Virus record (IMG/VR): IMGVR_UViG_3300013121_000038 | Location: 1 to 64,000 of that record | Strand: one strand, 5' to 3' | DNA length: 64,000 nucleotides | DNA from: a virus | Taxonomy: Duplodnaviria; Caudoviricetes | Shown here: in pieces, positions 10,494 through 49,702 of the stretch | Layout: each line of letters begins with the position of its first letter | Numbering within the stretch: position 1 is the stretch's first letter | The notes under the pieces: model-generated | Told to the model about the DNA's origin: nothing | The model's database searches: none | What the model saw: the letters and a program-made list of their open reading frames with translations, nothing else | Made by a program: the position numbers and the translations under genes

Positions 10494-10787
10494 ATGAAGA
10501 TCGATCTCATGGACGCCTTCTTCGACGAGCTGGAGAAGATCGCAGCTCTCGGAGAGCCAATGCCTGGTAGTGGGCGGCTACTGCGTCAGCAGCAAGCTGC
10601 CGGGACGGCTCAGCGAGCTTTCAGCCCGGCGCGGGAGACCGGCAAGGACTGGATCCAGAAGCAGGTCGCTGCTGGGCGCATGCAGTCCCCAGCCCACTCC
10701 GCCATGAGCCTGGCCTACAGGCAGCGCCCAGCGGCCGCCGTCGCAGCGGCCGCCAAGCCAGTTCTCCGTGGCGCTCTGAGGCCCTGA
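10494..10787 (+). CDS. Small basic protein with N-terminal FFDELEKIA tag
   Basis: 97 aa, tightly packed in operon. Confidence 0.75.
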   Translation: MKIDLMDAFFDELEKIAALGEPMPGSGRLLRQQQAAGTAQRAFSPARETGKDWIQKQVAAGRMQSPAHSAMSLAYRQRPAAAVAAAAKPVLRGALRP

Positions 10788-10788
10788 C

Positions 10789-11148
10789 ATGCACCAGGCG
10801 ACTCTTCGTGCTTTCGTCGATGAGATGCAGGGCACCCTCATGAAGGAGGCCTTCATCTCGAAGCTCGCCAACATCCCTCCGCCGGCGGCCGGCACGGCTC
10901 CTGGGTTCGGCAGCCGGGCCGCCAACTGGATCGGCAGGCACAAGGAGCACTTGACGCACGGCGCCGAGCTGGCAGGTCTGGGCATCCTCGGGGTCCCAAG
11001 TGCTCAGAAGCTCAGGAAGATTCGCTCCGCCGAAACCTCGCCTGAGGAGAAGCGAACCGCGAAGTACGAGCTCGCCGGCCTCGGGGTCCTGGCGGCGCCT
11101 TCTGCCATCCACCTCGGCCACGCCGCATGGAAGCACTTCCGGGGGTGA
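10789..11148 (+). CDS. Small tagged protein (FVDEM) with duplicated ELAGLG hydrophobic segments
   Basis: 119 aa; ELAGLGILG and ELAGLGVLA. Confidence 0.7.
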   Translation: MHQATLRAFVDEMQGTLMKEAFISKLANIPPPAAGTAPGFGSRAANWIGRHKEHLTHGAELAGLGILGVPSAQKLRKIRSAETSPEEKRTAKYELAGLGVLAAPSAIHLGHAAWKHFRG

Positions 11149-11149
11149 G

Positions 11150-12088
11150 ATGACGCCGGAAGACGCACTCTTCGACAGGCTGATGCTGGCCGAGAAGGCG
11201 GCTCCTTCTGCGCCTACTGCTGGCAGCCCAGAGGAGGCGTACGTGAAAGCCAAGGGCGAGCCAGACGACTCGAAGCCGGTCACGCTCCGGAATCTCTTCA
11301 CCCATCCGGACGCGCACCCGGTGTCGCTCGACTTCGCCATGCTGAAGGCTTTCGGCAGTGAGTGGTTCTCGTGGCAGGCCGAGACGATCTGGGACGAGAT
11401 CCAGGACGAGTTCAAGAGCCAGATCTCTGAGCTGACGAAGCAGAAGATCCGTGCGCTCCAGTCCTGTCACGTGTCGCTGCTGCCGTGGACCGCCTGGCAG
11501 GTCTTCGAGAAGGTAGCGCACGCCTTCAACGGCACGCTGCCGAACTTCTCCATCATGCAACGTCTGGATCTCGAAGAGCTCTTCGGCGCCGTCGACATGA
11601 TCCCCTTCATCCGCAAGGAGAAGTACTCCGACGAGGTGAAGCTCTACATGGCGGCGACGGTTCTGGAGGAGGACGTCTTCTTCGTCCCAGAGCCGCTGAA
11701 CTTCATCCAGATGGAGGTCTCCCAACCCCACTACCACTGCAACGACTGCGGCAACGAGGAGTCGGCTCTCTTCCACGACGGCTTCTGCTCCGCATGCACG
11801 CAGCGCATGCACCCGTCGCAGGGGCTGACACTGGAGCCGCGTCAGGAGCTGGTGAACCAGGGCCTGGGGCGCAACACCACCATCGTGCCGCGCTACGACC
11901 ACATCCAGGTCATGAAGCGGTGGGAAGAGGTCAAGGCGCTGCCGTTCTCCGAGTTCAAGATGGACGAGAACCGGATGGAAGACGTGCAGGTCCGGCAGCT
12001 TCTACTGGCACGCGACTACATGAACATCCGCCGCAAGCAGCTCGCCGAACAGCTCACGGCGCTCAAGTCCTGGATCGGTGCCTCATGA
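11150..12088 (+). CDS. Hypothetical protein with Zn finger
   Basis: Start MTPEDAL at 11150; CNDC...CSAC. Confidence 0.75.
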   Translation: MTPEDALFDRLMLAEKAAPSAPTAGSPEEAYVKAKGEPDDSKPVTLRNLFTHPDAHPVSLDFAMLKAFGSEWFSWQAETIWDEIQDEFKSQISELTKQKIRALQSCHVSLLPWTAWQVFEKVAHAFNGTLPNFSIMQRLDLEELFGAVDMIPFIRKEKYSDEVKLYMAATVLEEDVFFVPEPLNFIQMEVSQPHYHCNDCGNEESALFHDGFCSACTQRMHPSQGLTLEPRQELVNQGLGRNTTIVPRYDHIQVMKRWEEVKALPFSEFKMDENRMEDVQVRQLLLARDYMNIRRKQLAEQLTALKSWIGAS

Positions 12089-12777
12089 AGCTCACGTCCA
12101 AGGCGCGGAACAAGCTCTCCCCATCCACCTTCGTCTTCCCGGAGGAGAGGCGCTACCCGATCCACGACGAGAGCCATGCACGCAACGCCCTGGCGCGAGC
12201 TTCGGGGAAGTCGGAAGAGGGGAAGGTCAGAGCAGCCGTTCATGCCAAGTACCCAGGCATCGGCAAGGAGTCGCAGATCTCGTTCCTGGATGAGCTCGTG
12301 AAGATCTCAGGCATGGACGACGCCATCGGCTGGGCAGGGCAGCAAGGTCAGCGACTCAAGCGCTTCGGTGGCGGGGTTGCGTCGAACGTCGGCAACGCCG
12401 TCGCCTCCTTCGGCACACCTCGTGAGAGCTTGAAGAAGGGCTGGGAGGCCACGTGGCGCCCAGGCGGCCAACCACTGCATCCTCTCTCGAAGGCGCTTAT
12501 GGCCTACGGCGTCTACAACGACGTGCGTCAGGTAGTGCCTGGGCAGGATCCGTCTGGACAGGGTCGGAGCCGTCTCCACCGAGCGGCAACAGCAGTCGGC
12601 GGACAGCTCGGTGGTATCATGAGCGCGCCGTACGGTCTCAGCGGCGGCCTTGTCGGCGGCATGCTCGGGGCCAAGATGGGCGACTTCGCCGGCCGTGCCA
12701 TCGACAAGGTGAGGGGCTTCAAGCGCGTCCCACAGGCTCCACATCTCCCACCTCGCCCAATCGGTCAGCAGGAGTAG
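12085..12777 (+). CDS. DUF6582-like N-terminus, FLDELVKIS tag and Gly-zipper
   Basis: Start MKLTSKARNKL at 12085 (ATGA overlap); FPEERRYPIHDESHARNALAR; C-terminal GLSGGLVGGMLG. Confidence 0.7.
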   Translation: MKLTSKARNKLSPSTFVFPEERRYPIHDESHARNALARASGKSEEGKVRAAVHAKYPGIGKESQISFLDELVKISGMDDAIGWAGQQGQRLKRFGGGVASNVGNAVASFGTPRESLKKGWEATWRPGGQPLHPLSKALMAYGVYNDVRQVVPGQDPSGQGRSRLHRAATAVGGQLGGIMSAPYGLSGGLVGGMLGAKMGDFAGRAIDKVRGFKRVPQAPHLPPRPIGQQE

Positions 12778-12780
12778 CTC

Positions 12781-14940
12781 GTGTCATACGACAACCTTTC
12801 CCTCGGCTACGGCGGCGTCTCGCGCTTCGCGGGACAGCGCGGCCGTACCCAGGACGGCACCAACCGTTCTGGCGTGAGGTATCCGTCTCCCTTCTTCGAC
12901 ATCGCGCACACCTATCTGCCGCCGTCGATGAAGGCGCTGCTGCGGTGGTGCCGGTACTACTACCTCGTCAACCCGCTCATCAACACGGTCATCCACAAGA
13001 TGTCCGAGTACCCGGTGACGGAGATCATCATCGACGAGCAGGACCAGAGGATCAGGGAGAAGTGGGAGACGGTTCTCGGGCAGCACCTGCGGTACCGCGC
13101 GTTCCAGATCGAGGTCGGCCTCGACTACTACACGTACGGCATCTGCATGGTGACGATCCACTTCCCGTTCACCAAGTACCTCATCTGCAAGCAGTGCAAG
13201 CACAAGGAGAAGGCTGCCAAGGTCCACTACAAGTGGCGCAACCTGGAGTACGTCGGCACCTGCGACAAGTGCGGTACGACCGGCCCGCAGACGGTGCTCG
13301 ACTTCTACGAACGCGACCTGCGCCGCATCCGTCTCATGCGGTGGAACCCCGAGTACATCAACGTGGACCCGGGGTTCGGCGGAGCCGACCCCATCTACAC
13401 CTTCGAGCTGCCTCTCCAGCTCAAGAACGACCTCATCCTCGGCAAGAAGACGGTGCTCGACACCGTGCCGGACATCTTCGTCGAGGCCCTGCGGCGCAAC
13501 AAGTACATCCGCTTCGCCGACGACAACATCTTCGTCTTCCGCCGCCCCATCATCAGCCAGAAGGACAATGGCTGGGGCATGCCGCTCATCTTCCCGGTCC
13601 TGAAGGATGCCTTCTACCTCCAGGTCCTGAGGAAGGCGCAGGAGGCCATCGCTCAGGAGCACATCATCCCGCTCCGCGTCCTCTTCCCTCAGGCCGGCTC
13701 GGCGACCTCAGACCCGTACACCAACATCGACCTCAACGCCTGGAAGAGCCGCATCGAGGGCGAGATCGCCAAGTGGAAGTACGACAACAACTACATCCCC
13801 ATCCTGCCGGTCCCCATCGGCAACGAGACCATCGGCGGGGATGGGAAGGCTCTCGGCCTCTACCAGGAGATGCAGGTCTGGTCAGACCAGATCATCAACG
13901 GCATGGGCGTGCCGCTGGAGTTCGTGAAGGGCGGCCTCCAGTACTCGGGCTCGAACGTCTCGATGCGCATGCTGGAGAACATGTTCATCGGATACCGCCT
14001 CGATCACGAGAACATGCTGAACAACTTCGTCATCCGTCGCATCGCCAACTTCATGCAGTGGCCAGTCGTCAAGGCTCACATGAAGCGGTTCAAGATGGCG
14101 GACGACCTCCAGCGTTCGGCCTTCTACTTCCAGCTCAACCAGGCGCAGAAGATGTCCGACCAGACGCTCATGGCGGAGGTCGACCAGGACTCGGCGGTGG
14201 AGGATGAGCGCAAGAAGCTGGAGCTCGACAAGCAGCTCGAAGCGATGCGCAAGCAGCAGCTCGCTCAGGCCGCCATTCAGGGCGAGGTCATGCTCGTTCA
14301 GAGTCGCTACCAGGCCAAGGCCCAGGAAGCGATGATGAAGAACCAGGCGGCGCTCCAGGAGGCCCAAGGTGGTCAGATGGGCGGAGCTGGCATGCTGGGC
14401 CCGGACCAGATGGCAGGAGCCGGTGCCGGCGGCGGAGCAGGCGGCATTCCGCAGGACATGCTTGGCGCTCCTGGTGGGCAGCCTGGTGGTGGGGCTCAGC
14501 CAGGCGCTGGTGCTGAAGGACCTCCTGGCATGCAGGGTCAGCCGACTCCTGGCGCCGGGCAAGAAGGCGAGATGATCGACGGCCAGAGCGTCGATCCGTC
14601 CATGCCAGAGGGCTCTACCGTCTCTCCAGAGAACGCTCAGCAGGCTCCTGGCGACGGCATCCCCGCCACAGCGGCGTCCCCTCTCCAGATGGGCCAGAAG
14701 GGCGGCGGCTACAACCTGCTCTACCTGGCGAAGAGGGCGGCGAACGCGCTCAAGAAGATGGAGCCGATGCAGGCCAACATGGAGCTCAACCGCATGCGGA
14801 TGGGCAATCCTGGCCTCGGCAACCTCGTCCTCCAGATCATGCAGAAGGAGCGCGGCTCGCAGAAGGATCCGCTCAACCCGATGCAGAGCCCGCAGCCTCA
14901 GCAGAAGCCCACTCGCCGTAAGTCTTCGACTGGGGTGTGA
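12781..14940 (+). CDS. Probable portal protein with Zn-ribbon insert and G/Q/P-rich tail
   Basis: Portal-like order of elements: NPLINTVI..MSEYP, WGMPLI, IINGMGVPLEF..GGL.YSG, then coiled coil. Inference from pattern. Confidence 0.7.
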   Translation: MSYDNLSLGYGGVSRFAGQRGRTQDGTNRSGVRYPSPFFDIAHTYLPPSMKALLRWCRYYYLVNPLINTVIHKMSEYPVTEIIIDEQDQRIREKWETVLGQHLRYRAFQIEVGLDYYTYGICMVTIHFPFTKYLICKQCKHKEKAAKVHYKWRNLEYVGTCDKCGTTGPQTVLDFYERDLRRIRLMRWNPEYINVDPGFGGADPIYTFELPLQLKNDLILGKKTVLDTVPDIFVEALRRNKYIRFADDNIFVFRRPIISQKDNGWGMPLIFPVLKDAFYLQVLRKAQEAIAQEHIIPLRVLFPQAGSATSDPYTNIDLNAWKSRIEGEIAKWKYDNNYIPILPVPIGNETIGGDGKALGLYQEMQVWSDQIINGMGVPLEFVKGGLQYSGSNVSMRMLENMFIGYRLDHENMLNNFVIRRIANFMQWPVVKAHMKRFKMADDLQRSAFYFQLNQAQKMSDQTLMAEVDQDSAVEDERKKLELDKQLEAMRKQQLAQAAIQGEVMLVQSRYQAKAQEAMMKNQAALQEAQGGQMGGAGMLGPDQMAGAGAGGGAGGIPQDMLGAPGGQPGGGAQPGAGAEGPPGMQGQPTPGAGQEGEMIDGQSVDPSMPEGSTVSPENAQQAPGDGIPATAASPLQMGQKGGGYNLLYLAKRAANALKKMEPMQANMELNRMRMGNPGLGNLVLQIMQKERGSQKDPLNPMQSPQPQQKPTRRKSSTGV

Positions 14941-14941
14941 G

Positions 14942-15805
14942 ATGGCCATCGACCTTCATGCTTTCGCCGACGAGCTGGTGAAGATCGCCAAGAAGGAAGA
15001 GAAGAAGAACCGGATGTCACTGGGAGAGGCAGCCGCCATCGGCGGCACCGGCTATGTGACGCACAAGGCTGGCAAGGCCACTCAGCGTGGCTTCGCCCAC
15101 TCCCTCCTGCGCCGCGAGACGGGACCAGGGGCCACGGTGGAGGACATCGCCAAGCTCAAGAAGCACATGGGCGTGGAGCAGGTCCCGGTCTTCCACTCCA
15201 ACAACCCAGCCGGGAACGCCGCCTACGTTCCGCGCGGCGGCGCCTTCCGCAGCGCTCTCGGAGAACGCTTCGGTGCGAAGTACCGGCCGGTGGAAGAGAA
15301 GCTCTACCAGAGCATGGGCGCGCACCCCGAAGCCGTGCGGCGTGCCATGGATTCTCAACACGGTGGTGTGTTGACCGGCTCGAATCACGGTCCTCATATC
15401 GTCGCCCACGAGCTCGGGCACGCGGCCGGTCACGTCAAGCATCCCAAGGTCTGGAGCGCGCTCCACAAGTCGATGCTGCCGGCCAGCGCCATCGGGACCG
15501 GAGCTGCCCTCGGCATGTCGGCCATGGCCGACCCGGACTCCAAGAAGTCGAAGTGGGCCCCGGTGGTAGGAGCGCTGGGTCAAGCTCCGAAGCTGATCGA
15601 CGAAGGCATGGCGTCGTGGCGCGGCTACCAAGGCATGAAGCGTTCCGGCTTCAACGCCCAGCAGCTCGCCCATGGACGCGGGCAGCTCCTCCGAGCCTTC
15701 GGCACGTACGCCGGCGGAGCAGCTCTGCCAGTGGCGGGCGCCGTCGGGATTCGACAGGTCCGCAAGTACTTCAAGAAGAAGCGTCAAGAAGCAGCAGGTC
15801 AATAG
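14942..15805 (+). CDS. Tagged (FADELVKIA) HExxH metallopeptidase-like membrane protein
   Basis: VAHELGHA, hydrophobic hairpin, DEGMASWRG, AFGTY; resembles YugP/Zn_peptidase_2 motif order. Confidence 0.65.
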   Translation: MAIDLHAFADELVKIAKKEEKKNRMSLGEAAAIGGTGYVTHKAGKATQRGFAHSLLRRETGPGATVEDIAKLKKHMGVEQVPVFHSNNPAGNAAYVPRGGAFRSALGERFGAKYRPVEEKLYQSMGAHPEAVRRAMDSQHGGVLTGSNHGPHIVAHELGHAAGHVKHPKVWSALHKSMLPASAIGTGAALGMSAMADPDSKKSKWAPVVGALGQAPKLIDEGMASWRGYQGMKRSGFNAQQLAHGRGQLLRAFGTYAGGAALPVAGAVGIRQVRKYFKKKRQEAAGQ

Positions 15806-18208: not shown

Positions 18209-21200
18209 ATGCACAGTGCGAGGATGAGGCAGCCGGTGCCCAGCGACGCCAAGATGGGTGTTCTCATCGAGAACTCCATCAACAAGATCAAGGAGCTGTT
18301 TGCTGACGGCTACCTTGGCAGCTCGCAGCGTTCCCTTCGGCTGAAGGATGTCTGGGCCGAGGATGAGCTGCACTCCAGCGATGTGCAGGGCCAGCTCCAC
18401 GCCAAGCTCAACGATCAGACGTGGGGAGTGCCCATCAAGGCCACCATCGAGCTGATGGACCATCAGACCGGCAAGCCGATCGGCAAGCCGTCGACGGTCA
18501 CACTCATGCGGTTGCCGAAGCTGACGGACCGTTTCTCCTTCATCATCGACGGCGGGGAGTATCAAGTCGACCACCTTCTTCGTCTTCGATCTGGTGTGTA
18601 CACCCGCATCAAGAGGAACGGCGACCTCGTCTCCGAGTTCAACCTCGCGCGAGGCGGCAACAAGAACTTCGGGCTCTACCTCGACCGCAAGAAGAGCCTC
18701 GTCAACTTCCAGCCCAAGTCCTCCGAGGCCAAGGTCCCAGCCTACCCTCTGCTGAAGGTGATGGGCGTCTCGGACGAAGCCATCGAGCAGAGCTGGGGCA
18801 AGGCCGTCTTCGCTGCCAACCGGATCACGAACCCGGAAGCGGAAGAGAAGGTCCTTCGGCGCTTCTACGAGAAGACTGGCGGCAAGGACCTGGGACGCGC
18901 TCCCTCTCTGGAAGAGGTGAAGCAGCACGTCTACAGCTACTTCGACGATACTGCGCTCCGCCCTGAGACGACGAAGGTCACTCTCGGCAAGCCGTTCACC
19001 AAGGTGACCGGAGACGCGCTCTTGTCGGCGTCTTCCAAGCTCATCAAGTTGGAGAAGAAGGAAGTCGATGCAGATGATCGCGACTCCCTCATCTTCAAGG
19101 ACATCGTCCACATCGAAGACTTCATACCGGAGCGTCTCGGCAAGAGCCGTGGCCAGATCAAGCAGAAGGTCCGGAACGCGATCAACAACAAGACCAGCAT
19201 CTCCGAGATTCTCCAGGGTGGTGACATCTTCAAGCGTCCGATCGCCGACTTCTTCATGAAGGGTGGCAACGTCTCGGAGCGTGGGGACCAGACCAACCCT
19301 GTGCAGATGCTCTCAGGCAACTTCAAGACGACCCTCGTCGCCAAGGACTACGGCGGCATCAAGGACGCCGAGAAGCTGGGCGACGAGATGCGCGCCATCA
19401 ACCCCAGCCACTTCGGGTTCCTCGATCCGATGCACACGCCGGAGTCAGAGCGCACCGGCATCACCCTGCACCTCGGCTCAGGTGTCGTGAAGGACGGCAA
19501 CGAGCTGAAGACCCACGTCTACAACCTGAAGACCGGCAGGAACGAGTTGGTGCCGGTGCAGGACTTCCACGAGAAGACGGTCGTCCTCGCCGATCAGATC
19601 TCGTGGAAGAACGGCAAGCCGGTGCCTCATGCTGAGACGGTCAAGGTCAAGCTGCCTGGTGGCGACATCGGAATGCGAGCGATGTCAGAGGCCCACTACG
19701 TCATGCCGACGGCGAAGTCCATGTTCTCATGGGCCTCGAACCTGATTCCGTTCCTCCAGAACGATCAGGGCAACCGAGCCTCGATGGCGGACAAGCAGAT
19801 CGAGCAGGCCATCTCGCTGAAGTACCGAGAGGCGCCACTGGTCCAGTCCTCCGTCCACCAGGACAACCCCGAGTACACCTTCGAGAAGCACCTGGGGAAG
19901 AACATCGCTTCGCACAAGGCCCCAGTCGCCGGCGAGGTGGTGAAGGTCACGCCTGATGAGATCCACATCAAGAACGGCAAGGAGACACACAAGGTCCAGC
20001 TCTACAATCATTTCCCGCTGAACGATCCTGCGGCGATGCTGCACTCGACGGTGCTCGTGAAGCCTGGGGACCAGGTCAAGGCGAATCAGGTCTTGGCTGA
20101 CTCCAACTTCTCGAAGAACGGAACCCTGGCGCTCGGCACCAACCTGCGAGTCGGCTACATCCCGTACAAGGGCTACAACTTCGAGGACGGCATCGTCATT
20201 TCGGAGGGTGCATCGCAGCGGCTCACGTCGGAGCACCTGCACAAGCTGAAGCTCGACATCGACACGAAGATCGATCGGACCAGCAAGGCCTCCTGGAAGG
20301 CCCACTCGTCCCGGAAGGCCGCAGGTCTGGGCAAGGATCAGTGGGATGCGCTCGACGATGACGGAGTCGTGCGTGAGGGGACCGTCGTCCGGCCTGGGCA
20401 GATCCTCGTCACTGCCCTCACCCCCAACGTCCAGAAGAGCGACGTCCGCGCCAAGGCCTTCGGTCCGTCTCGTGCTGGCAAGGCCTGGAGAGACAAGTCT
20501 CTGACCTGGGACTCCGACTACGTCGGCACAGTGGCGCGCGTGGTGAAGTCGCCGAATGGCGGCGTCGTCCACGTCCATATCAAGACCGAGGAGCCGGCTG
20601 AGATCGGCGACAAGCTCTCAGGCCGACACGGCAACAAGGGCATCATCACCAAGATCCTGAAGAACGAGGAGATGCCGTTCACCGTCGATGCGGCGACGGG
20701 AGAGAGACGGCACATGGACGTGCTACTCAACCCATCAGGCATCCCGACCCGCATCAACCCTGGCCAGGTGCTGGAGACAGCCGCTGCGAAGATCGCTGAG
20801 AAGACTGGGAAGCCGTACTTCGTGAACAACTTCACCGGCGCTGGCCATGACTACCGCCAGATGGTGGTGGACGACCTCAAGAAGCATGGCCTCACCGACG
20901 AGGAGCTGGTCTACGACCCATCGGACGTCCGCAAGCCGCTCGGTTCGGTTCTCGTAGGCCCGCAGCACCTGCTGAAGCTGAAGCATCAGGTCGAGAAGAA
21001 GCTGGTCGTCCGTGGCGGCGAGTCAGACCTCGAAGGCCGGCAGTACGGATACGACTACGACATGCAGCCCTACAAGGGCGGAGCGCATGGCGGACAGGGC
21101 TTCGGCGCTCTGGAGCTCTACTCGCTCCTCGGCCACAACGCCCGCCACAACCTGCGCGAGATGTCGACCTACAAGTCCGACATGCAGGGCCCAGACTTCT

Positions 21201-37027: not shown

Positions 37028-38030
37028 GCTGAGCAAGCACGCCGCTGCCTCGGCTCGCCTCAGGGCCCAGGCCCAGGGGATGGAGAAGGACGCGGCACTC
37101 GGGAAGTTCATCGGCGCGACGGTCGGGACTGGCCTCAAGGCCGCCGGCCGTTTCGCCGCTGATTCTCTTGCTCACCCCATCGCGAAGGGACTTCCGCGAG
37201 TCGGCGCCGCGCTAGGGCTCGCGGGCGTCGTGAACAAGGGCCGGGCGCTCTACCACGGCTTCAACGAGAACGCTCAGCGAGCCATGCTCGGTCTCGGTGC
37301 GCCCAAGACGACTCTTGCCTCGGTGAACGACATGAACCTGCCAGAGCTGATGAAGACGGCTTCTGCCGCCGATCCGGAGTCGATGAAGAAGATCGCGGCC
37401 TGCATCGACCTTCTGGAGCACTACGAGCCGGAGGCCGTGTCAGAGCTGACCGCCGACTTCCGTGCCTACGCCGAGCACGTCAACGGGAAGATGAAGACGG
37501 CGGCATCCGCCACCGACTCGTGGGCGCAGAAGGCGTGGGGTGGCACCAAGGAGATCGGAGTCGGCGCCGCCAAGACCCTGGCCGGATCTCTCCTCGTCGG
37601 CATGGGTCTCGCCGCATCGACCGATCTCCTTCGGATGGCGAAGACCAAGCTGACCGAGAGCCGGAACTTCAAGCGGATGATGGACGCCAACAGCAACCTG
37701 CGCAGCAAGTCGCCGGCGGAGCTGCGGCAGGCGTTCAAGTCCTTGCAGAAGTTCGCGCCGGATGTCGCCTCCGATCCGCTCGCAGCCGGGTCGATGGTGT
37801 GGCACCTCACGAGCTCTCTCGAAGGCGACCACTACAAGCCGCTGCGTGAGGCCGTGACGCTCCAGAAGGAGATGGCGCGTCGCTCCTTCCTGCCGGAGCC
37901 GAAGATCGACTTCGGTCTCAGCGACAAGAACAACCGGCCGCCTCGTCATCAGCAGCAGGCTCCTGGCACAGCCAGCGGCGCCGCCCCGTACAACCTGCCG
38001 AACTCCTCTACGTCGAAGACGCATCCGTGA
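37014..38030 (+). CDS. Putative internal head protein with hydrophobic segments
   Basis: 338 aa; MEKDAA, MKTASA and MKTAASA precede Gly/Ala-rich segments. Confidence 0.7.
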   Translation: MLVRELSKHAAASARLRAQAQGMEKDAALGKFIGATVGTGLKAAGRFAADSLAHPIAKGLPRVGAALGLAGVVNKGRALYHGFNENAQRAMLGLGAPKTTLASVNDMNLPELMKTASAADPESMKKIAACIDLLEHYEPEAVSELTADFRAYAEHVNGKMKTAASATDSWAQKAWGGTKEIGVGAAKTLAGSLLVGMGLAASTDLLRMAKTKLTESRNFKRMMDANSNLRSKSPAELRQAFKSLQKFAPDVASDPLAAGSMVWHLTSSLEGDHYKPLREAVTLQKEMARRSFLPEPKIDFGLSDKNNRPPRHQQQAPGTASGAAPYNLPNSSTSKTHP

Positions 38031-39781: not shown

Positions 39782-40579
39782 ATGCCGATGGATCCACAGC
39801 TCGCTGCCATCTACGGGACCAACCAGGACGAGAGCGACGTCGAGAAGCTCGCCGCCGCCGAGCTCGCCGAGGAGCTCGCAGACGAGGGCGAGGAGGTCGA
39901 GGAGTCCGACCTCTCCGACGAGGAGGCCGAGGAGCTCGCCCAGCAGCTTCTCGCCGCCGAGGGCGAGGAGGGCGCGGAGCAGGGTGACGAGGAGGACGAG
40001 GAGGGCGCCGCCGTCGAGGAGCCGGGCGAGGAGGAGCAGGAGAAGCTCTCCGAGGCCGACTACCTGGGCCGCGTCATGGCCCACGCCTACACCCAGGAGC
40101 TCCGCAAGATCGCCGCCGTCGGCGACTCCAGCGCCTACGAGGGCAAGGACACCGCGTCCCGCGCCCAGAAGGTCGGCGGCTGGGCTCGTCGTCAGGGCCA
40201 CCGTGCTGCCGGCGCCGCCAAGGCCTTCGGCAAGCACTTCAAGGGCGGCGACAAGTGGTCCCTGAAGGGCCAGCACGCCGGCAAGACCTGGGGTGCTCGC
40301 GCCGCCGTCGGTGCGGCTGCCGGTGCTGCCGGCTACGGCGCCTACCGGAAGTTCAAGGGCAAGGGCAAGAAGAAGCAGTCCGCCGCCGAGCCGTCGGCCC
40401 TCGACATCCTCGCCGAGCGCCGCGCGCTGGAGATCCTGGCCGAGAACGGCATCGACCCGACCCAGGAGCAGGAGAAGACCAGCGCCTCCGAGCCCGAGAT
40501 GGAGGCCCTCGGCAACGCCGTCGAGCAGCGGGCGTACGCGCTGCTCCAGGCCAACGGCTACATCCAGGAGCAGGAGTAG
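39782..40579 (+). CDS. Acidic scaffold-like protein carrying a basic Gly/Ala cassette
   Basis: E-rich ends; YTQELRKIAA ... KKQSAA flank a cationic segment. Confidence 0.7.
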   Translation: MPMDPQLAAIYGTNQDESDVEKLAAAELAEELADEGEEVEESDLSDEEAEELAQQLLAAEGEEGAEQGDEEDEEGAAVEEPGEEEQEKLSEADYLGRVMAHAYTQELRKIAAVGDSSAYEGKDTASRAQKVGGWARRQGHRAAGAAKAFGKHFKGGDKWSLKGQHAGKTWGARAAVGAAAGAAGYGAYRKFKGKGKKKQSAAEPSALDILAERRALEILAENGIDPTQEQEKTSASEPEMEALGNAVEQRAYALLQANGYIQEQE

Positions 40580-40640: not shown

Positions 40641-41021
40641 ATGCCAGCTTGGATCCACGACAGGGCAGAGCACATCCAGAAGAAGAACCCGTCGATGCCG
40701 AAGAGCCAGGCCTTCGCCATCGCCACGCAGCAGTCGCACGCGACAGGACACACCCCGCAGGGCTACGGAACGGCAGAGGGCAAGAGGAAGGCGAAGAGGA
40801 AGTACGACAAGCCGGCGTCGAGCTACACGCAGACGGCGGACCCTAGCAGCAAGACCAAGTCGAGCGGCCTCAACTTGGTTTTCCTGAAAGGGTTCACAAG
40901 CGAGCTTGAGAAGATCTCAGGCGTGTCTGTGAAGAAGAGGTTGGAGCACCCAGCGGAGAAGCCGTCGGCGACTCCTGAGAACTTTCCACCGCCCCTCGCG
41001 TCAGCAGCAGGGGACAGATAG
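40641..41021 (+). CDS. Small basic protein with FTSELEKIS tag
   Basis: MPAWIHDRAEHIQKKNPSMPKSQAFAIATQQ; GGAG RBS. Confidence 0.7.
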   Translation: MPAWIHDRAEHIQKKNPSMPKSQAFAIATQQSHATGHTPQGYGTAEGKRKAKRKYDKPASSYTQTADPSSKTKSSGLNLVFLKGFTSELEKISGVSVKKRLEHPAEKPSATPENFPPPLASAAGDR

Positions 41022-41033: not shown

Positions 41034-42599
41034 ATGAAGACCAAGCTCGCCGGTCACCTGCCACTCCAGGACGCCATCGCGCGGACCATCGAGGAGGCGC
41101 GCGAGAAGATGAAGCTCGCCTCCGATGCCTGCGAGGGGGAGGACAAGGAGAAGGTGAAGAAGCTGGTGAAGTTCGAGAAGAAGGAGCACGGCCACATCCC
41201 CTCCGAGAAGGAGGAGCGGGCCGAGTACGAGAAGAAGAGCTCCATCATCGACACCGACGACCCGGAGGAGGTGGAGAAGCTGGCCGCCTCGCTCGACTTC
41301 CTCGCCGAGAAGATCGCCGGCGACTCCGTCACCATCGGCGGCGAGTCGCGTCAGGGCGGCCAGGTCCTCGCGACCATGAACGCCGTCGGCGGCACCCAGC
41401 CCTACAAGAAGGACTCGTCCAAGAGCCACAACGTGCCGACGTCGACCGGCATGAAGTCGACGAAGGACAACCCAGGCGCGTCCACCGCCGTCCCCACGGA
41501 CGACGAGCGGGCCCCTGGCGGCACCGGGGCCAAGTACCCCGCCAAGGGCGTCCTCAAGACCGGCGGCGTGAAGAAGACGGCCATGGACTACCACCAGGCC
41601 CGCGCGGTCGGCCAGGCCGTCGGCCTCGGCACCCATCTCGTGGGCGGCGCCATCGGCTACCAGAAGGGCAAGGAGCAGCACGCCCGAGGCGAGAAGCACA
41701 CCTTCGGGGTGCCGCAGGGCGCGGCCGCCCTCTTCCTCCCAGGCGGCGCCGGCTACCAGCTCGGCCGCTACATGGGCCACAACGCGGCCGGCGGCGAGAA
41801 GAAGAAGGGGAAGAAGAAGCACAGCTCCGTCGAGCGGCTCCAGCTCGCGCTGGCAGCCCAGACCGGCATCGTCACCCCGGAGATGGCTGCCGACATGGAG
41901 AAGGACGCCGGCAAGGTCACCGACGCCCTGAAGTCCATGGGCGGCAAGGCGCGCGCCGCCGGCGGCCGCGTCATGGAGCTCCTCAAGGGCGGGAAGTTCG
42001 GCGCTGGCAACCGCGCCAGCAACTACCGGCCTGGTGCGAGAGGCACCATCCCTTCGAGCGAGGCGTGGAAGTCGCTCGGGACTCGTGCTGCGGCCGGAAC
42101 GGCTGCCGTCGTCGGCGGGAAGAAGGCCTACGACAAGCTGAAGAAGAAGGGCAAGAAGAAGGCCGCCGGCGTCGAGGCCGTCGACTACATCCTCTCCAAG
42201 ATCAGCGCCGTCGAGAACGGTGGCGAGAGCCCGCAGGGTGGTGAGCAGCTCAGCAACACCGCCCCGGTGCCCTCCAACGCCGGCCGTGAGCTCATCCGGA
42301 ACAAGGACGGCATCAAGAACGTGACCAAGGCCCAGGCCAAGTCCCCTCGCAAGAAGGAGCTGGCCGAGGTCCTGACCGAGCCTGCCATGAGCGCGGCTCA
42401 CGACTCCAAGGTCAACGAGAACCTGCGGAACGCCGCGAAGGGCGGCGTGAAGATCGCAGCGGCACGGGTGTTCCTCCAGAAGATCGCTTCGGAGGGCTGC
42501 CAGTGCTCTGGCGCCGGCAAGTGCCGGTTCTGCCAGATGCAGGAGAAGGCTGCCGCACTTCGCGGCAACGGAGCCGAGGCCGTCGCCTCGGAGGCATGA
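41034..42599 (+). CDS. Modular head/scaffold polyprotein
   Basis: 521 aa; more than 10 K-x-[AS] motifs, internal GGES.QGG repeat, C-terminal CQC...CRFC. Confidence 0.75.
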   Translation: MKTKLAGHLPLQDAIARTIEEAREKMKLASDACEGEDKEKVKKLVKFEKKEHGHIPSEKEERAEYEKKSSIIDTDDPEEVEKLAASLDFLAEKIAGDSVTIGGESRQGGQVLATMNAVGGTQPYKKDSSKSHNVPTSTGMKSTKDNPGASTAVPTDDERAPGGTGAKYPAKGVLKTGGVKKTAMDYHQARAVGQAVGLGTHLVGGAIGYQKGKEQHARGEKHTFGVPQGAAALFLPGGAGYQLGRYMGHNAAGGEKKKGKKKHSSVERLQLALAAQTGIVTPEMAADMEKDAGKVTDALKSMGGKARAAGGRVMELLKGGKFGAGNRASNYRPGARGTIPSSEAWKSLGTRAAAGTAAVVGGKKAYDKLKKKGKKKAAGVEAVDYILSKISAVENGGESPQGGEQLSNTAPVPSNAGRELIRNKDGIKNVTKAQAKSPRKKELAEVLTEPAMSAAHDSKVNENLRNAAKGGVKIAAARVFLQKIASEGCQCSGAGKCRFCQMQEKAAALRGNGAEAVASEA

Positions 42600-42609
42600 G
42601 GAGCTGACG

Positions 42610-43005
42610 ATGCCCGACAAGATCAGCAACGTCCAGGTCGCCCAGCTCCAGAAGCTGGCGAGCACCACCCTCCGGAAGCTGGCGGGGGAGAACAAGACGC
42701 TCCGCGACGAGAACGGTGACCTGAAGACCAAGGTCGCCGCCTTCGAGAAGAGGGCTCGCGCGGAGAAGATCGCGTCCGAGATGGAGTCCAAGGGGCTCAA
42801 CCTCGGATCCACCTTCGAGCAGAAGGTGGCAGAGCTGCTGGAGAACGACCGACTCGACGTCGTCGAGGAGGCCGTCGGTCTGGCGGCGCCGCAGATCAAG
42901 CTCGCCTCCGTCCACGAGGACGGCGTCGAGGTGGAGAGCACGGGAGACGACGCCGCCGACAGGGCGACGCAGGTCTTCGCAGCAGGGCTCGCCTCCCTCG
43001 GCTGA
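42610..43005 (+). CDS. Coiled-coil scaffold-like protein
   Basis: 131 aa; QKLAS, EKIAS, IKLAS. Confidence 0.7.
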   Translation: MPDKISNVQVAQLQKLASTTLRKLAGENKTLRDENGDLKTKVAAFEKRARAEKIASEMESKGLNLGSTFEQKVAELLENDRLDVVEEAVGLAAPQIKLASVHEDGVEVESTGDDAADRATQVFAAGLASLG

Positions 43006-43575: not shown

Positions 43576-44715
43576 ATGAGCGTGCCAGCCAAGGTCCTGA
43601 ACGACCTGTTCTTCGAGAAGGTCGCCACCCAGGAGGGCAAGGACAAGATCGCCGAGTTCGGCGGGACGTACATCCGCGACCGACTCCGCGAGGTCTCCTT
43701 CGCCCGCAAGGTCCTCCCCCCGCAGCCCGTCCAGCGGTCCGAGTGCCAGCGGTCCGTCAACCACGACACCCTGGTCAAGATCGTCGACATCGAGCCCAAC
43801 TCGAAGGCGATGGCCATGGGCTTCCGTGGCCAGCCCACGGCGCGCTTCATCCGCGCGCCGCGCTACGAGATCCCCTTCTTCACGATCTCGTCCGAGAAGT
43901 TCGAGAAGACGGAGCAGGAGCTCCTCGCCTACGAGATGCCCATCACCAAGATCATCGAGGAGAACTCGGTGAAGGACATCCAGAGCATCGAGGACCGCCA
44001 GTTCCTGCTCTTCATCGAGGCCGCCGTCCAGGGCTTCCAGACCGACGCGAACGGAGGGGCCACGGCGTTCAACCACACGAACGTCAACGCCGGCTCCGTG
44101 AAGTCGGCCTCCGTGGTGAAGGGTGAGGGCGCCCTCACCGCCACGACCGAGGACTTCACCGTCTACCCCGTCCTCAAGACGGACTTCATCAAGATGAAGA
44201 AGCTCCTGCACCGCCGGCACCTCCGCGCGGAGCGGATGCTTCTCACCGAGCCGGACTACGACGACATCTCGTCGTGGACCATCCAGGACGTCGGCATGAC
44301 GATCGCCGGCGAGACCTCCACCGAGGGCTGGAAGAGCGACACGGTGGTGGGCCTGAAGATCATCCGCACCATCAAGACCGAGATCCTCCGCGAGGGCAAC
44401 ATCTACTGCTTCACCGCGCCGGAGTTCTGCGGCCGCTTCTACGTCCTCAACCAGACCAAGTTCTACATCGACAAGATCGCGAACCTGATCACCTGGCAGT
44501 CGTGGGAGGACATCGCGATCGGCATCGGCAACATCTCGTCGATCGTGAAGATGGAGCTCTACCCCGGCTCCGTCACGCCTGGTGAGGAGACCGCCATCGG
44601 CGGCGGCATCGACTACCGCGCGGCCCTGCCCGTGGACGAGCTCGACCCGCTCCTCGCCCCGACCAACAACAAGGTCGACCAGGGCCTGAAGTACCCGAAC
44701 GTCTCCCAGTTCTAG
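43576..44715 (+). CDS. Major capsid protein (HK97 fold)
   Basis: 379 aa, extreme codon bias, IRDRLREVSFARKVLPP, KDIQSIEDRQFL; position in head operon; followed by a strong hairpin. Confidence 0.8.
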   Translation: MSVPAKVLNDLFFEKVATQEGKDKIAEFGGTYIRDRLREVSFARKVLPPQPVQRSECQRSVNHDTLVKIVDIEPNSKAMAMGFRGQPTARFIRAPRYEIPFFTISSEKFEKTEQELLAYEMPITKIIEENSVKDIQSIEDRQFLLFIEAAVQGFQTDANGGATAFNHTNVNAGSVKSASVVKGEGALTATTEDFTVYPVLKTDFIKMKKLLHRRHLRAERMLLTEPDYDDISSWTIQDVGMTIAGETSTEGWKSDTVVGLKIIRTIKTEILREGNIYCFTAPEFCGRFYVLNQTKFYIDKIANLITWQSWEDIAIGIGNISSIVKMELYPGSVTPGEETAIGGGIDYRAALPVDELDPLLAPTNNKVDQGLKYPNVSQF

Positions 44716-44779: not shown

Positions 44780-44798
44780 CAGGGGGTAGGATGCCGCC

Positions 44799-45095: not shown

Positions 45096-45098
45096 GGC

Positions 45099-45317: not shown

Positions 45318-45865
45318 TGATGGCCGACGACCTCGGATACGGCGCAGCAGGCACCAACCTCCCGGCTCCGTCCATGGAGTCGGCTGAGGGCGTGGTGCTG
45401 CCGGCGGCGCCGACGGAGCTCAACGACTTCGTCAACCAGGTCCGGCTCTTCATGCGGGACTACTCGGAGCTGAACCGCCTCATCGCCGGGGAAGAATCCT
45501 CGAACCGCCAGATCATGTGGGCCGTCTTGGACGCCCTCGACGATTTCAACACAGACCCGCCCTTCACCCGCTTCAACCTGAACAGCTTCCCGTCTCGCAG
45601 CCTGCTGCTACGGCTCACCGTCATCTCGCTGCTGGAGTCGATCGGCCTCCTCCAGACGCGCAACCATCTCCAGTTCTCGGACGGAGGCATCCAGGTCGGC
45701 ATCAACGACAAGACGCCATTCCTCCAGTCCTGGATCCAGCTCTTCCGTTCTCGCTCCGACCAGAAGAGCCAGCGGCTCAAGGTCGCCTACAACATCGAGG
45801 CAGCCTGGGGCGGCGGCATCCACAGCGAGTACCGCTTCGTGAACAACTTCTACGGAGAATGGTGA
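45317..45865 (+). CDS. Probable head-tail adaptor
   Basis: 182 aa helical protein after the MCP; positional inference. Confidence 0.55.
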   Translation: MMADDLGYGAAGTNLPAPSMESAEGVVLPAAPTELNDFVNQVRLFMRDYSELNRLIAGEESSNRQIMWAVLDALDDFNTDPPFTRFNLNSFPSRSLLLRLTVISLLESIGLLQTRNHLQFSDGGIQVGINDKTPFLQSWIQLFRSRSDQKSQRLKVAYNIEAAWGGGIHSEYRFVNNFYGEW

Positions 45866-46443
45866 TGCGGCCCAACATCGACTCCTTCTTCGACGAGCTG
45901 CTGAACGTCTCGGAAGAGCTCACCAAGCAGTCGAATGCCCCTGTCCCTACCCCGAAGAAGGTTGGGCTTTCTGGCAAGGGCGCTCTCATCGGTGGCGCTC
46001 TCGGCGCCGGCCTGGGCGGAATCCGCGCCATCGGCCGAGAGACGCACGAGCGTGCGGCTGATGACCGTGCCGGCCTGACCGACGAGCAGAAGAAGGTCCT
46101 GAGGAAGAAGCGTCTCGCCGGTCACGCAGCCAACATCCTGGCCTGGAGCGGCGCAGGCTCTGGCATCGGTAGCCTGGAGCGCAAGGCGCGCGGTGTCGTC
46201 GGCGAGGCCGGAGAGAAGGTGTGGGATTCCATCGACTACGCCCGCGCGCACGCAGACGAGGTCGTCGCGGATGCTCGCAAGCACGCGGACCAGGTCGTCG
46301 CCGACGCCCATGCCCGCGCCAACCAGACTGTTCACGACGCGCCGAAGAACTTCGTCAAGGGCATCGGTCACGCTGCGGCAAACGCCGGAAAGCGAGTCGG
46401 TCGCGGCATCAAGTCCATCTTCACCAGGAAGCCGAAGGTGTAA
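45865..46443 (+). CDS. Tagged (FFDELLNVS) Gly-zipper protein
   Basis: Start MRPNIDSFFDEL at 45865; GALIGGALGAGLGG; tandem HAD[EQ]VVADA repeat. Confidence 0.7.
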   Translation: MRPNIDSFFDELLNVSEELTKQSNAPVPTPKKVGLSGKGALIGGALGAGLGGIRAIGRETHERAADDRAGLTDEQKKVLRKKRLAGHAANILAWSGAGSGIGSLERKARGVVGEAGEKVWDSIDYARAHADEVVADARKHADQVVADAHARANQTVHDAPKNFVKGIGHAAANAGKRVGRGIKSIFTRKPKV

Positions 46444-46452
46444 GGAGCCAGC

Positions 46453-46593: not shown

Positions 46594-46606
46594 CCAGGGA
46601 GCGGCC

Positions 46607-47233
46607 GTGGACGACCTCACCTTCTATCAGGCGCTGCGCGGTCCAAGGGCCGAAGGCGGCGAGGCATGTCTGCGCTCCCTCATGAAGAAGACTGCCCAGA
46701 CAACGCCGGTCAAGAAGCCGATCTCCGTCCAGGACACTCATGCCATATCCAACGACATCCAGGCTCGGATGGCGGAGGTCGTGAAGAGGCTGAAGGCGAT
46801 CAAAGCCGGCAAGATCAAGAAGGGCTCGGCCGAGGAAGCGAAGAAGCAGGTCCTCGACCGACTCAAGGCTCATGCTCCTGAGCTCATCGGCGGCGGTGTC
46901 GGAACCGTGGCGGGTGGTCTGTACGGTTATCTTGCGTCCCGCCGCAAGGATCCGAAGAAGCCGTCGGCCATGGAAGAGGACGCCGCCAAGATGCTGCGGG
47001 CGTACGAACGTGCCGAGCAGGAGATGAAGGAAGAGGGCAAGAAGCCAGGCTTCCCGCACAAGATGCGTGGTGTCTACGCCCGTGCCTTCGCCGACGCCTC
47101 GAAGGTGATGAAGGAGCATCCAGTCGCCACCGGCGCGATGTATGGCGGCGCCGCTGGTTCGGCCGGGGCAGGGCTCGGTCGTATCGCCTACGACCTCTAC
47201 AACAGCAGAATCGGAAAGGGCCTCGACGTATGA
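46607..47233 (+). CDS. Gly-zipper protein
   Basis: GTG start at 46607; LIGGGVGTVAGGLYG and GAMYGGAAGSAGAGLG. Confidence 0.65.
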   Translation: MDDLTFYQALRGPRAEGGEACLRSLMKKTAQTTPVKKPISVQDTHAISNDIQARMAEVVKRLKAIKAGKIKKGSAEEAKKQVLDRLKAHAPELIGGGVGTVAGGLYGYLASRRKDPKKPSAMEEDAAKMLRAYERAEQEMKEEGKKPGFPHKMRGVYARAFADASKVMKEHPVATGAMYGGAAGSAGAGLGRIAYDLYNSRIGKGLDV

Positions 47234-48477
47234 ACCACGAAGCTCAACTCGCCAAGACCCTCGGAGACGACGAGCAGGAGAAGCTCGCGTCCCACTTTGC
47301 TTCCTACACCGTCGACGAGCTCGCGTCTCTCCTGAAGGAGAAGACTGCGCTCGCTCCGATGCCTGCTCCTGCGGCGACCCAGGGCGATCTCATGCGTGAG
47401 CGCACCAAGGGCGGGCGGATGATCAACACGCTGAAGAATACCTTCAAGCCGCCAGTGCTGGCGTCGGTGAAGATCGCCGACGAATGGGGCCGGCAGCTAG
47501 CGAACGAGGACATCGAGAAGAACGCCTTCATGGATCAGGCGCTCGGCCTCGCCGTCGGTCATCACTATGGCAAGGAGCAGAAGAAGCGTGGCGAGAACTA
47601 CAGCTTCGGAGTTCCGCAGGGCGCCGCTGCTCTCTTCCTGCCTGGGGGAGCCGGCTACCAGATCGGCCGCTACATCGGCCACAACGACAAGAGCGTGAAG
47701 AAGGGCAAGAAGAAGAAGGCCAGCGCCCAGCTCGTCTACGAAGCGCTCATGGAGAAGATCTCTACCGGCGCCGTCGGCAACCTCGGCGGCCAGATGCCGA
47801 GCCTCACACCGAAGATGCCGACTGCTCCCAAGGTCGGCGCCGGCAACATGATGCCGCGAATCGGAACGGTCGGAGGTGGCGGGCTCGGCAAGACCGTGAC
47901 GGGCGCGGCCAGGCTGCGCGCGGAAATGGACAAGGTGGCCTTCTGGGGCTCCGGCACCATCGCCAAGGGCATCAACTGGGCCGCCCCTCATCTCGCCAAG
48001 GCCACCAGCGCCCTCGCGTCGGCTGGGCCAGGCAAGTCCGCTCTCATCGGCGCCGGCGTGGGTGCTGCCGGCGGTGCCGCGCGGCACGCGCTGTCGGGCA
48101 GAGACCCCCAGACGGGGCAGAAGCGCACCACCCTGCTAGGTTCCATGGCCGGCGGCGCCGCTCTCGGTGGCGCGGCTGGCGCTGGTCTCAGTGCAGGAGC
48201 CAGCCGCTTCCAGGGCTCTGCGCTGCATGGGCGCATGACCAGCGGCAACTTCAAGTTCAACACCCAGCCTCCGGCTGCGGCCGCAGGAGCAGCCGGCGCC
48301 GCCGGGCCGACGCCTGTCGCGCAGCCGGCGCCAGTCGGTCCAGGCGGACTGCGTCCGAATCCAGAAGGCGCTCCGGCACACTGGCGAAACGCTCCGCCTC
48401 CGCCGGCTGCTGGTCCTCAGGCAGCCGGTCCACAGCCAACGCCAGTGAAGAAGGGCTGGTTCGGGCTCGGCAGGTAG
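47230..48477 (+). CDS. Modular Gly-zipper polyprotein
   Basis: 415 aa; EKLAS, EKTA, VKIA, EKNA, KKAS, EKIS and DKVA separate distinct modules. Confidence 0.75.
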   Translation: MNHEAQLAKTLGDDEQEKLASHFASYTVDELASLLKEKTALAPMPAPAATQGDLMRERTKGGRMINTLKNTFKPPVLASVKIADEWGRQLANEDIEKNAFMDQALGLAVGHHYGKEQKKRGENYSFGVPQGAAALFLPGGAGYQIGRYIGHNDKSVKKGKKKKASAQLVYEALMEKISTGAVGNLGGQMPSLTPKMPTAPKVGAGNMMPRIGTVGGGGLGKTVTGAARLRAEMDKVAFWGSGTIAKGINWAAPHLAKATSALASAGPGKSALIGAGVGAAGGAARHALSGRDPQTGQKRTTLLGSMAGGAALGGAAGAGLSAGASRFQGSALHGRMTSGNFKFNTQPPAAAAGAAGAAGPTPVAQPAPVGPGGLRPNPEGAPAHWRNAPPPPAAGPQAAGPQPTPVKKGWFGLGR

Positions 48478-48480
48478 TCG

Positions 48481-49392
48481 ATGATCCCTCTCGTCACCAA
48501 GCTGTGGGTTCGGTCCTTCAACATGGACCACATGGACGTGTTCTGGGAGATCGGCCCGGTGCCGGCGACCAGCGACACGGCTCCCCACACCATCTTCGAC
48601 TGCGAGTTCACCGTCCTCCGTTCGCAGGCGGCGCTTGGTCCGTACGAGGCGATCAGCTTGCCGTTGATGGACCAGTACCACTTCCGCGACGTGAAGATCT
48701 CCCGTCTCCACAAGTGGCGGCAGTGGTTCTACAAGCTGAAGGTCACCAACAAGAAGACAGGCGAGGAGAAGGAGTACGGGCCATGCTCCGACGTCGAGCC
48801 GGAGCCGGACCTCATCGCCGCAGAGATCATCCGGCAAGAGGACATGCTCTTCCGGAAGTTCGTGGGTCGACGCTGCTGGCTCCTACCTGTGCGCACCTTC
48901 GGCCCTCGCTGTTCCTGCTTCGACACTACGCTGCAACGGGTCACACGCTCTGCGCATCTGCCGTGCTTCGGCACCGGATGGCTCGGCGGGTACATGCGCC
49001 CTGTAGAGGTCTTCGTCCAGTTCGACCCGAACCCGAAGCGCACAGTGCTTCAGGCCACAGGCGAGATGCAGCCGACGAATGCCTCCGCCAGGATGTCTTC
49101 CTTCCCACCCACCAGCCCGCGTGACATCATCATCGAGTCGGAAAACCGTCGCTGGCGTGTGGTGAATGTCTCACAAACTCAACGGCTTAGGGCGGCCGTA
49201 CACCAGGAGCTCACTCTCCACGAAGTTCCCAAGACAGACGTCGAGTACTCCATCCCTCTCGACGTCGACGCGCGCTCGGTGACTCCGTCCGACGAGGGGA
49301 ACTTCACGAACGCGCAGAACATCGAGAAGCATGGCGACGACTCCGACATTCTCTCGTTCTGGACTGGCAAGGCACGCGGCACTCTTCGATGA
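48481..49392 (+). CDS. Probable neck/head-completion protein
   Basis: 303 aa; RCSC...PCFGTGWLGGY; positional inference. Confidence 0.55.
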   Translation: MIPLVTKLWVRSFNMDHMDVFWEIGPVPATSDTAPHTIFDCEFTVLRSQAALGPYEAISLPLMDQYHFRDVKISRLHKWRQWFYKLKVTNKKTGEEKEYGPCSDVEPEPDLIAAEIIRQEDMLFRKFVGRRCWLLPVRTFGPRCSCFDTTLQRVTRSAHLPCFGTGWLGGYMRPVEVFVQFDPNPKRTVLQATGEMQPTNASARMSSFPPTSPRDIIIESENRRWRVVNVSQTQRLRAAVHQELTLHEVPKTDVEYSIPLDVDARSVTPSDEGNFTNAQNIEKHGDDSDILSFWTGKARGTLR

Positions 49393-49702
49393 GATCGAGA
49401 AGATCTCCGAAGAGGCGCACGTGATGCAGCCGGCTCCAGTTGCGCCCAAGAAGAAGCCGAACTGGAAGAACGTCCTCAAGGCTGGTGCCGGCTACGCACT
49501 CGGTGGCGCGGCCGGCTACGTCGGCGGCATGGCAGCAGAGCGCGGGCTCGCGCACGTCTTCAGGAACAAGTGGCCGTCGATGACGCCTGAGCAACGGTAC
49601 AAGGTGCTCTATCCGGCTCTCGGCGCCGCGACCGTCGGCCTCATGGCAGTGAACCACGCCTCCCAGATTCGCCGTCAGCAGGCTCTGGAGGGAGATGAGT
49701 GA
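49331..49702 (+). CDS. Tagged (LFDEIEKIS) Gly-zipper protein
   Basis: 123 aa; GAGYALGGAAGYVGG and ALGAATVGLMAV. Confidence 0.7.
   Translation: MATTPTFSRSGLARHAALFDEIEKISEEAHVMQPAPVAPKKKPNWKNVLKAGAGYALGGAAGYVGGMAAERGLAHVFRNKWPSMTPEQRYKVLYPALGAATVGLMAVNHASQIRRQQALEGDE

Follow-up and report, generated by a model that had tools for sequence, protein, structure and literature searches.

A recurrent peptide among the head genes of an uncultured phage

The window analysed here, the 64,000 nucleotides at positions 1 to 64,000 of IMG/VR record IMGVR_UViG_3300013121_000038 (Caudoviricetes), belongs to a viral contig of 102,311 bp (GC content 63%) from an uncultured phage of about 190 kb whose complete relatives span 177–209 kb. 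A short peptide tag with the consensus F-x-D-E-L-x-K-I-[AS] recurs in proteins encoded among the head genes of this window. A preliminary description had listed ten copies and proposed that the tag is a portable capsid-loading signal ending in its own protease site. All ten peptides are found where they were placed, in open frames of the plus strand. A position-specific matrix built from instances in three genomes resolves them into eight strong copies (22–37 bits; starting at 10518, 12283, 14963, 29373, 30301, 40088, 40893 and 49382) and two decayed ones (10813 and 45886), in which just the first half of the motif survives and whose syntenic counterparts in relatives carry the full tag. Scanned with the same matrix, the reversed genome yields no score that comes up to 10 bits. 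Across the whole contig, a strict regular expression finds 11 matches on the plus strand, none on the minus strand and none past 49.4 kb; the tags of the window are confined to 10.5–49.4 kb.

The tag occupies different places in its carriers. Gene 10494–10787 encodes a 97-residue protein with FFDELEKIA at residues 9–17 (10518–10544; matrix score 35.0), and gene 10789–11148 a 119-residue protein with the decayed N-terminal peptide FVDEMQGTL (10813–10839), which falls under the matrix threshold and has orthologs with the full tag. Tagged genes adjoin the portal protein gene (12781–14940) on both sides. Directly upstream, gene 12085–12777 encodes a 230-residue protein in which FLDELVKIS (residues 67–75; 12283–12309) lies between a DUF6582-like N-terminal domain and a conserved helical body; directly downstream, gene 14942–15805 encodes a 287-residue protein with an HExxH motif and an N-terminal FADELVKIA (14963–14989). 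The 455-residue product of gene 28047–29414 has its tag, FSDEILRIT (29373–29399; score 22.4), at the C terminus, five residues before the stop codon. In the slot upstream of the gene for the large terminase, TerL (33034–34836), gene 30265–31350 encodes a basic Gly-zipper protein of 361 residues with an N-terminal FYDELQKIA (30301–30327). Directly downstream of the prohead protease gene (38027–39721), the product of gene 39782–40579 is a scaffold-like protein, acidic in its N-terminal half and basic in its C-terminal half, that bears the variant YTQELRKIA at residues 103–111 (40088–40114). FTSELEKIS (40893–40919) is internal, at residues 85–93, in the 126-residue product of gene 40641–41021. 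The decayed FFDELLNVS (45886–45912) is N-terminal in a basic protein of 192 residues (gene 45865–46443), whose syntenic genes in the relative G003 have full tags, and LFDEIEKIS (49382–49408) occupies residues 18–26 of a basic protein of 123 residues (gene 49331–49702).

The landmark genes named here are encoded on the same plus strand. Besides those already mentioned, they comprise two genes for core or scaffold-like proteins of 521 and 131 residues (41034–43005), which contain dense and conserved K-[IVL]-[AS] sites, and the gene for the major capsid protein (MCP; 43576–44715; phrog_2522), with a K-I-A at about residue 27, in its N-terminal arm. The protease, 564 residues long, has its catalytic part at about residues 74–243 and matches phrog_18299 (E = 2e-8), with no sequence match in Pfam or the PDB; it shares 40% identity with gp222 of Salmonella phage Arash, and shows a long C-terminal extension with Cys-rich stretches. 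Most head-block proteins are without match in Pfam and PHROGs. The only cultured kin recovered by searching a phage collection with portal and MCP are Arash, the nearest, and Vibrio phages D69, D148 and D181, at 22–32% identity in these two proteins; the portal search additionally matches Bacillus phage G.

Several other features of the region were recorded. An RNA-polymerase-like protein of 2,115 residues (18209–24556, plus strand) aligns to both gp206 and gp216 of Arash, the former annotated as RNA polymerase beta and the latter as beta'; what are two genes in Arash are fused in the window, and the fusion protein has no tag. The gene directly after it (24557–25726, plus strand) encodes a baseplate spike with a Phage_base_V OB domain, likewise untagged. 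The tail sheath (1,107 residues; 50459–53782, plus strand) and a probable tube protein, together at 50459–55286, come after the head block and are both untagged. A cassette of about 50 residues (...FGVPQGAAALFLPGGAGYQ.GRY.GHN...KKGKKK.S) is found at 41667–41825 and 47569–47724, in two different head-block proteins, the products of 41034–42599 and 47230–48477. The product of 36083–37027 is a homologue of the Arash virion protein gp220 and contains a weak tag-like peptide, LDEEITKVA, near its C terminus (36923–36949), to which LDSEIQKVA corresponds at the same place in G003.

Conservation of the tag and turnover of its carriers

Alignment of 194 distinct instances extends the consensus upstream of F-x-D-E-L-x-K-I-[AS], with hydrophobic residues at −5 and −3 and Ala or Ser at −1, methionine being commonest at −8 or −4. 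The residues F, D, E, L, K and I are each at least 92% conserved, a figure that is too high, most instances having been collected with a pattern in which these six positions are fixed. An alignment made without that pattern (A1) shows K and I invariant and D, E and L conserved to at least 90%, at a mean column identity of 21%, and outside the tag no residue of that family is strongly conserved. Past +8 there is no conservation, and Ala, Gly and Pro prevail. About 70% of the 194 instances are N-terminal, at 3–25 residues from the start codon on a wide reckoning and 4–12 on a narrow one; of the others five are C-terminal and the remainder internal or uncertain. The placement at N-termini, C-termini and domain borders noticed in the preliminary description is borne out for all three.

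As a helix, the tag is strongly amphipathic, with a hydrophobic moment of 1.2–1.8 at 100 degrees. On our reading of the logo as a helical wheel, F, L, I and the upstream hydrophobic residues would form one face, flanked by D, E and K, with the two variable positions pointing away. AlphaFold2 predicts a short helix for the tag in both portal-flanking proteins (residues 61–74 in the product of 12085–12777 and 6–21 in that of 14942–15805), followed in each by a low-confidence linker.

A back-translated DNA pattern of the tag occurs in 8–9 copies per genome in five relatives that are complete or almost so and in 3–9 copies in four that are more distant or less complete, and a control pattern is absent from the same nine genomes. 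Wobble positions vary freely across relatives with GC contents of 24–68%, from which it follows that the peptide, rather than the DNA, is under selection; an element acting at the DNA level is thus ruled out, and the high third-position identity inside the window reflects codon bias only. Eight to eleven tags are found per genome in the phage and its relatives. In a collection-wide scan most of the matches listed lie on contigs with homologues of this phage's head genes, and among those matches the clade extends over GC contents of 24–68% and down to about 30% MCP identity. Arash lacks the tag by both DNA pattern and matrix scan, and no other repeated motif is found there. Applied to bacterial genomes, the DNA pattern gives mostly single matches in long open reading frames, on contigs without homologues of the phage head genes. 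A recurrent MR-x-AF-x-DEL-x-KIA on bacterial contigs (L216, L229 and L286) was set aside as a chance look-alike picked up by pattern searches, and a transketolase-domain protein of viral contig L119 was dropped as a false positive because of the same look-alike match; the phage tag itself occurs in the bacterial scan only on L177 and L244. A literature search for the peptide strings returned no paper. The peptide tag is real, highly non-random and clade-wide.

BLAST sorts the 190 carriers into 129 clusters, of which 106 are singletons. Their median length is 131 residues, half have Gly-zipper motifs, and 94% of tagged proteins have an isoelectric point above 9, as against 38% of all genes. The carriers are thus unrelated at the level of sequence, as initially proposed, but most are alike in composition, being small, basic and rich in Gly and Ala. 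This likeness, together with the grouping of some carriers in syntenic families, would fit a functionless relic of descent within one fast-evolving paralogous family. We hold such an origin to be highly improbable: the tag sits on clearly unrelated folds, in N-terminal, internal and C-terminal positions, and no other part of its carriers comes near it in conservation.

A minority of carriers are enzymes or have known domains, which in relatives include a C92/NlpC-P60-type amidase, a LigD-like phosphoesterase and ligase, a SNF2 helicase, a glyoxalase-GNAT protein and a MazG-like protein. Small domains, namely DUF6582, DUF5661 and a Zn-ribbon-like segment, may precede an internal tag. The proposal that replication proteins lack the tag holds within the window but fails in relatives, where the SNF2 helicase and the LigD-like ligase are tagged. 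In the product of 14942–15805, residues H156, E157, H160 and E221 are invariant in nine homologues, which suggests a zincin-like metallopeptidase. One homologue has a weak Zn_peptidase_2 match; the AlphaFold2 model of the protein is of low confidence (predicted local distance difference test score 67) and finds no match with Foldseek. Within the basic Gly-zipper product of 28047–29414, a J-domain-like segment with an HPD motif spans approximately residues 209–243 (DnaJ, E = 8e-4, below Pfam's threshold).

Relative to the genes for portal, protease, scaffold-like protein, MCP and TerL, the positions of the tagged genes stay the same, but the proteins they encode diverge or are replaced: the core genes are syntenic at 45–79% identity, and the tagged genes between them often have no detectable homologue. 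The slot upstream of TerL, which holds the Gly-zipper protein in the window (30265–31350), is occupied by a C92/NlpC-P60 amidase in G003 (129682–130317) and by a LigD-like ligase in the contigs L052 (8674–10665) and L055 (9164–11539), each occupant being tagged. The N-terminal domain and tag of gene 40641 are followed by 33 residues in the window and by a SNF2 helicase of about 700 residues in L049. The gene after the protease encodes the scaffold-like protein, often with a tag variant (...LGRvMAHAYxQELxKIA) that recurs clade-wide in this position; the gene after that is usually small and bears a canonical tag.

A candidate load-then-clip address for the virus head

The best reading of these data is that the tag is a load-then-clip signal like the capsid-targeting sequence (CTS) of phage T4, with a different sequence. 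A 13–17-residue amphipathic helix followed by a flexible linker would act as a docking peptide that brings dissimilar proteins into the assembling prohead through a conserved partner, most plausibly the inner face of the MCP or the scaffold core, the MCP being a candidate receptor. Most of the cargo, small and very basic, would be comparable to T4 internal proteins, and some would be enzymes. After assembly, the prohead protease would probably cut the tag at its terminal K-I-[AS], along with the numerous K-[IVL]-[AS] sites of the scaffold and core proteins, and clipping of the tag would release the cargo within the capsid. The existence of the tag, its conservation as a peptide, its modularity, its place in the head module and the K-[IVL]-[AS] statistics are observed here; that the carriers dock, are encapsidated, are cleaved and reach the host we infer from sequence patterns.

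Loading of the carriers into the head is, on balance, slightly favoured by the evidence. The tag is the best-conserved element of every carrier, and the scaffold-like protein is itself tagged. The portable capsid-loading role claimed in the preliminary description gains from the position of the tag in the head module, from the swapping of downstream proteins behind an unchanged tag and from the basic or enzymatic nature of the carriers; it is weakened by the untagged RNA polymerase, a protein of the packaged type. The virion of Arash contains 116 proteins (PMC10585845), among which are RNA polymerase, helicases, ligases and a cell-wall hydrolase. A large protein cargo is therefore plausible in this lineage, although Arash itself lacks the tag.

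Tagging of the scaffold-like protein also suits a different function, in which the tag is the assembly helix of a transient scaffold core, and carriers bundle with one another or with the scaffold-like protein and are then degraded or expelled, never becoming delivered cargo. The clustering of tagged genes with those of the protease, scaffold-like protein and MCP is consistent with such a core, as are the many K-[IVL]-[AS] sites in neighbouring core proteins, reminiscent of T4 gp22, which is cut to pieces (PMC9026906). Enzymes such as the amidase, ligase, helicase, GNAT, HExxH and J-domain carriers would however be odd as disposable scaffold, and the strongly basic carriers resemble DNA-associated internal proteins that are retained. 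We judge this function to be quite unlikely.

The claim that the tag ends in a protease site was examined through the distribution of its last three residues, generalized to K-[IVL]-[AS]. With tags masked, this motif occurs 60 times in the head-block proteins of G000 against 24 expected (z about 7.5–7.9) and 56 times in those of G003 against 30–31 expected (z about 4.7–4.8), and outside the head block of both genomes it shows no enrichment (z −0.2 to −0.5). Control tripeptides that substitute R or E for K, or G or T for A or S, or that swap the order, are flat, with z within about ±1.6. The signal resides in K-[IVL]-[AS]: a generic K-x-[AS] was discarded as a protease code, being weakly enriched (z 2.5–3.8). 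The motif is also preferentially retained, in 55% of cases in G003 orthologs against 10–32% for controls other than the small set R[IVL][AS], which is retained in 5 of 9, and in 31% against 0–13% for controls in homologues with less than 40% identity. It is dense in the scaffold-like protein, in the products of 41034 and 42610, in the C-terminal half of the protease and in the N-terminal arm of the MCP, and the two products encoded at 41034–43005 are candidate protease substrates. Just after the catalytic domain of the protease, a K-x-[AS]-[ED]-I-x-K motif is kept in all relatives, including Arash, and marks a candidate autocleavage site. The proposed protease site thus draws support from enrichment and preferential conservation confined to head-block proteins, support that is statistical only. 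A cut by the prohead protease at the K-I-[AS] that ends the tag seems to us to fall just short of an even chance.

If cleavage were the sole role of the tag, it would be a protease recognition element at a propeptide junction, without targeting function, and carriers would have some other route into the prohead or be activated by cleavage in the cytoplasm. The K-[IVL]-[AS] statistics would be explained, as would the location of internal tags exactly between small N-terminal domains (DUF6582, DUF5661 or Zn-ribbon-like) and the rest of the protein. Yet the tag has at least nine near-invariant residues on three helix faces, against a three-residue motif at the other candidate sites, and cleavage at the tag starting at 29373, five residues before the stop codon, would free almost nothing. 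Since prohead proteases work inside proheads, their substrates need targeting in any case, and a role restricted to cleavage appears very unlikely.

Several observations weigh against a load-then-clip signal. Arash packs many proteins without the tag, which shows that it is not needed for packaging in this lineage, and the RNA polymerase is untagged although its Arash homologues are the most abundant virion proteins. Docking of the helix alone would explain all conserved tag residues, which leaves no need for cleavage at the terminal K-I-[AS]. The reverse of the K-[IVL]-[AS] motif is modestly enriched (z 2.6–2.8), and the enrichment of the motif itself could partly reflect helical sequence periodicity. 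Distant relatives retain the tag and lose the K-I-A in the MCP N-terminal arm, which was accordingly rejected as a firm cleavage site. Finally, half of the tags of G002 lie outside the head block.

This last observation also bears on a partner outside the capsid. Candidates of phage origin are RNA polymerase or sigma factor and portal or terminase; a chaperone or protease of the host would be another, and so would the membrane, with the tag as an amphipathic anchor of the Gly-zipper proteins. The location in the head module would then reflect late co-expression only. Two tagged genes of G003 adjoin a sigma-factor-like gene, about half of the carriers have Gly-zipper, membrane-like segments and one has the J-domain-like HPD motif, all of which agree with such a partner. 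A membrane anchor is argued against by the soluble DNA enzymes that share the tag, and non-capsid partners in general by the presence of the tag in the scaffold-like protein and in the portal-flanking genes, by conserved synteny and by the match of its last three residues to a motif enriched only in head-block proteins. We regard docking to a non-capsid partner as unlikely.

In its fullest form, the load-then-clip reading describes a global clade of phages of about 130–210 kb in which a near-invariant docking helix, coupled to the clade's own K-[IVL]-[AS] rule, serves as a plug-and-play address for rapidly exchanged cargo that is delivered to the host. The cargo would include basic proteins, amidase, ligase, helicase, acetyltransferase, metallopeptidase and J-domain proteins, and the fixed slots would be hot spots of cargo swapping. 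We put this combined picture forward tentatively, as somewhat less probable than its negation. Should the tag prove to load its carriers into the head, the capsid-targeting principle of T4 would have a second example, independent in sequence, in which the cargo is far more extensive and diverse and a candidate protease code is included. For hundreds of uncultured phages, the proteins that are packaged, and probably injected, would become predictable from sequence, pointing to fast-evolving cargo for host takeover or anti-defence, and the 17 residues of the tag would offer a compact means of bringing foreign proteins into capsids.

Comparison with known docking and targeting peptides

Short docking helices are known from scaffolding systems. 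P22 gp8, 80alpha gp46 and SaPI1 CpmB have C-terminal coat-binding helices, the HK97 protease has a C-terminal targeting tail, and in 80alpha and SaPI1 two unrelated proteins carry the same docking motif. As proposed here for the tag, they attach their protein to the inside of the capsid through a short helix; unlike the tag, these helices are C-terminal, are known from one or two proteins per phage and are not known to serve a cargo repertoire.

The peptides of encapsulins and bacterial microcompartments are short, terminal, joined by a flexible linker and portable between unrelated cargo enzymes. Encapsulin shells have the HK97 fold, and microcompartment encapsulation peptides are amphipathic helices at N- or C-termini. 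The tag resembles them in its amphipathic helix, its poorly conserved linker and its portability between carriers in relatives. These systems differ in being non-viral, with no DNA, portal or maturation protease, in having another consensus and in that the peptide is not known to be removed; the locus described here holds portal, terminase, protease, MCP, tail sheath and spike genes and does not belong to this class.

In phiKZ-like phages and SPN3US, propeptides are removed at S/A/G-x-E. Three accounts describe N-terminal propeptides on head and ejection proteins of these giant phages (PMC5694885, PMC7411985 and PMC10052503). Many head-internal proteins are processed by the prohead protease, the virion contains an RNA polymerase and the propeptides are thought to act in assembly. 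The propeptides differ from the tag in that they are not known to have a common sequence, and in their cleavage motif.

The closest analogue is the T4 CTS, a 10-residue peptide of the internal proteins IPI–III and Alt that targets them to the head and is then clipped off (Mullaney & Black 1996, as reviewed in PMC9026906). The two peptides are unrelated in sequence (MKTYQEFIAE in T4, AFxDELxKIA here). The T4 cleavage motif, [LI]-x-E for a gp21-type protease, is likewise distinct from the candidate K-[IVL]-[AS], and no conserved [LI]-x-E is present in the tag among the 194 instances; the protease of the window has no match to Pfam's T4 gp21 family. The tag further departs from the CTS in its 8–11 carriers per genome, enzymes included, and in its occurrence at internal and C-terminal positions and on the scaffold-like protein. 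The two correspond in several features of design. T4 is a large myovirus, and its CTS directs proteins to the scaffold core and ends in a prohead protease site. In both systems a short, mostly N-terminal peptide is common to divergent and mostly basic proteins, and the tag is kept while the cargo genes are poorly conserved between relatives.

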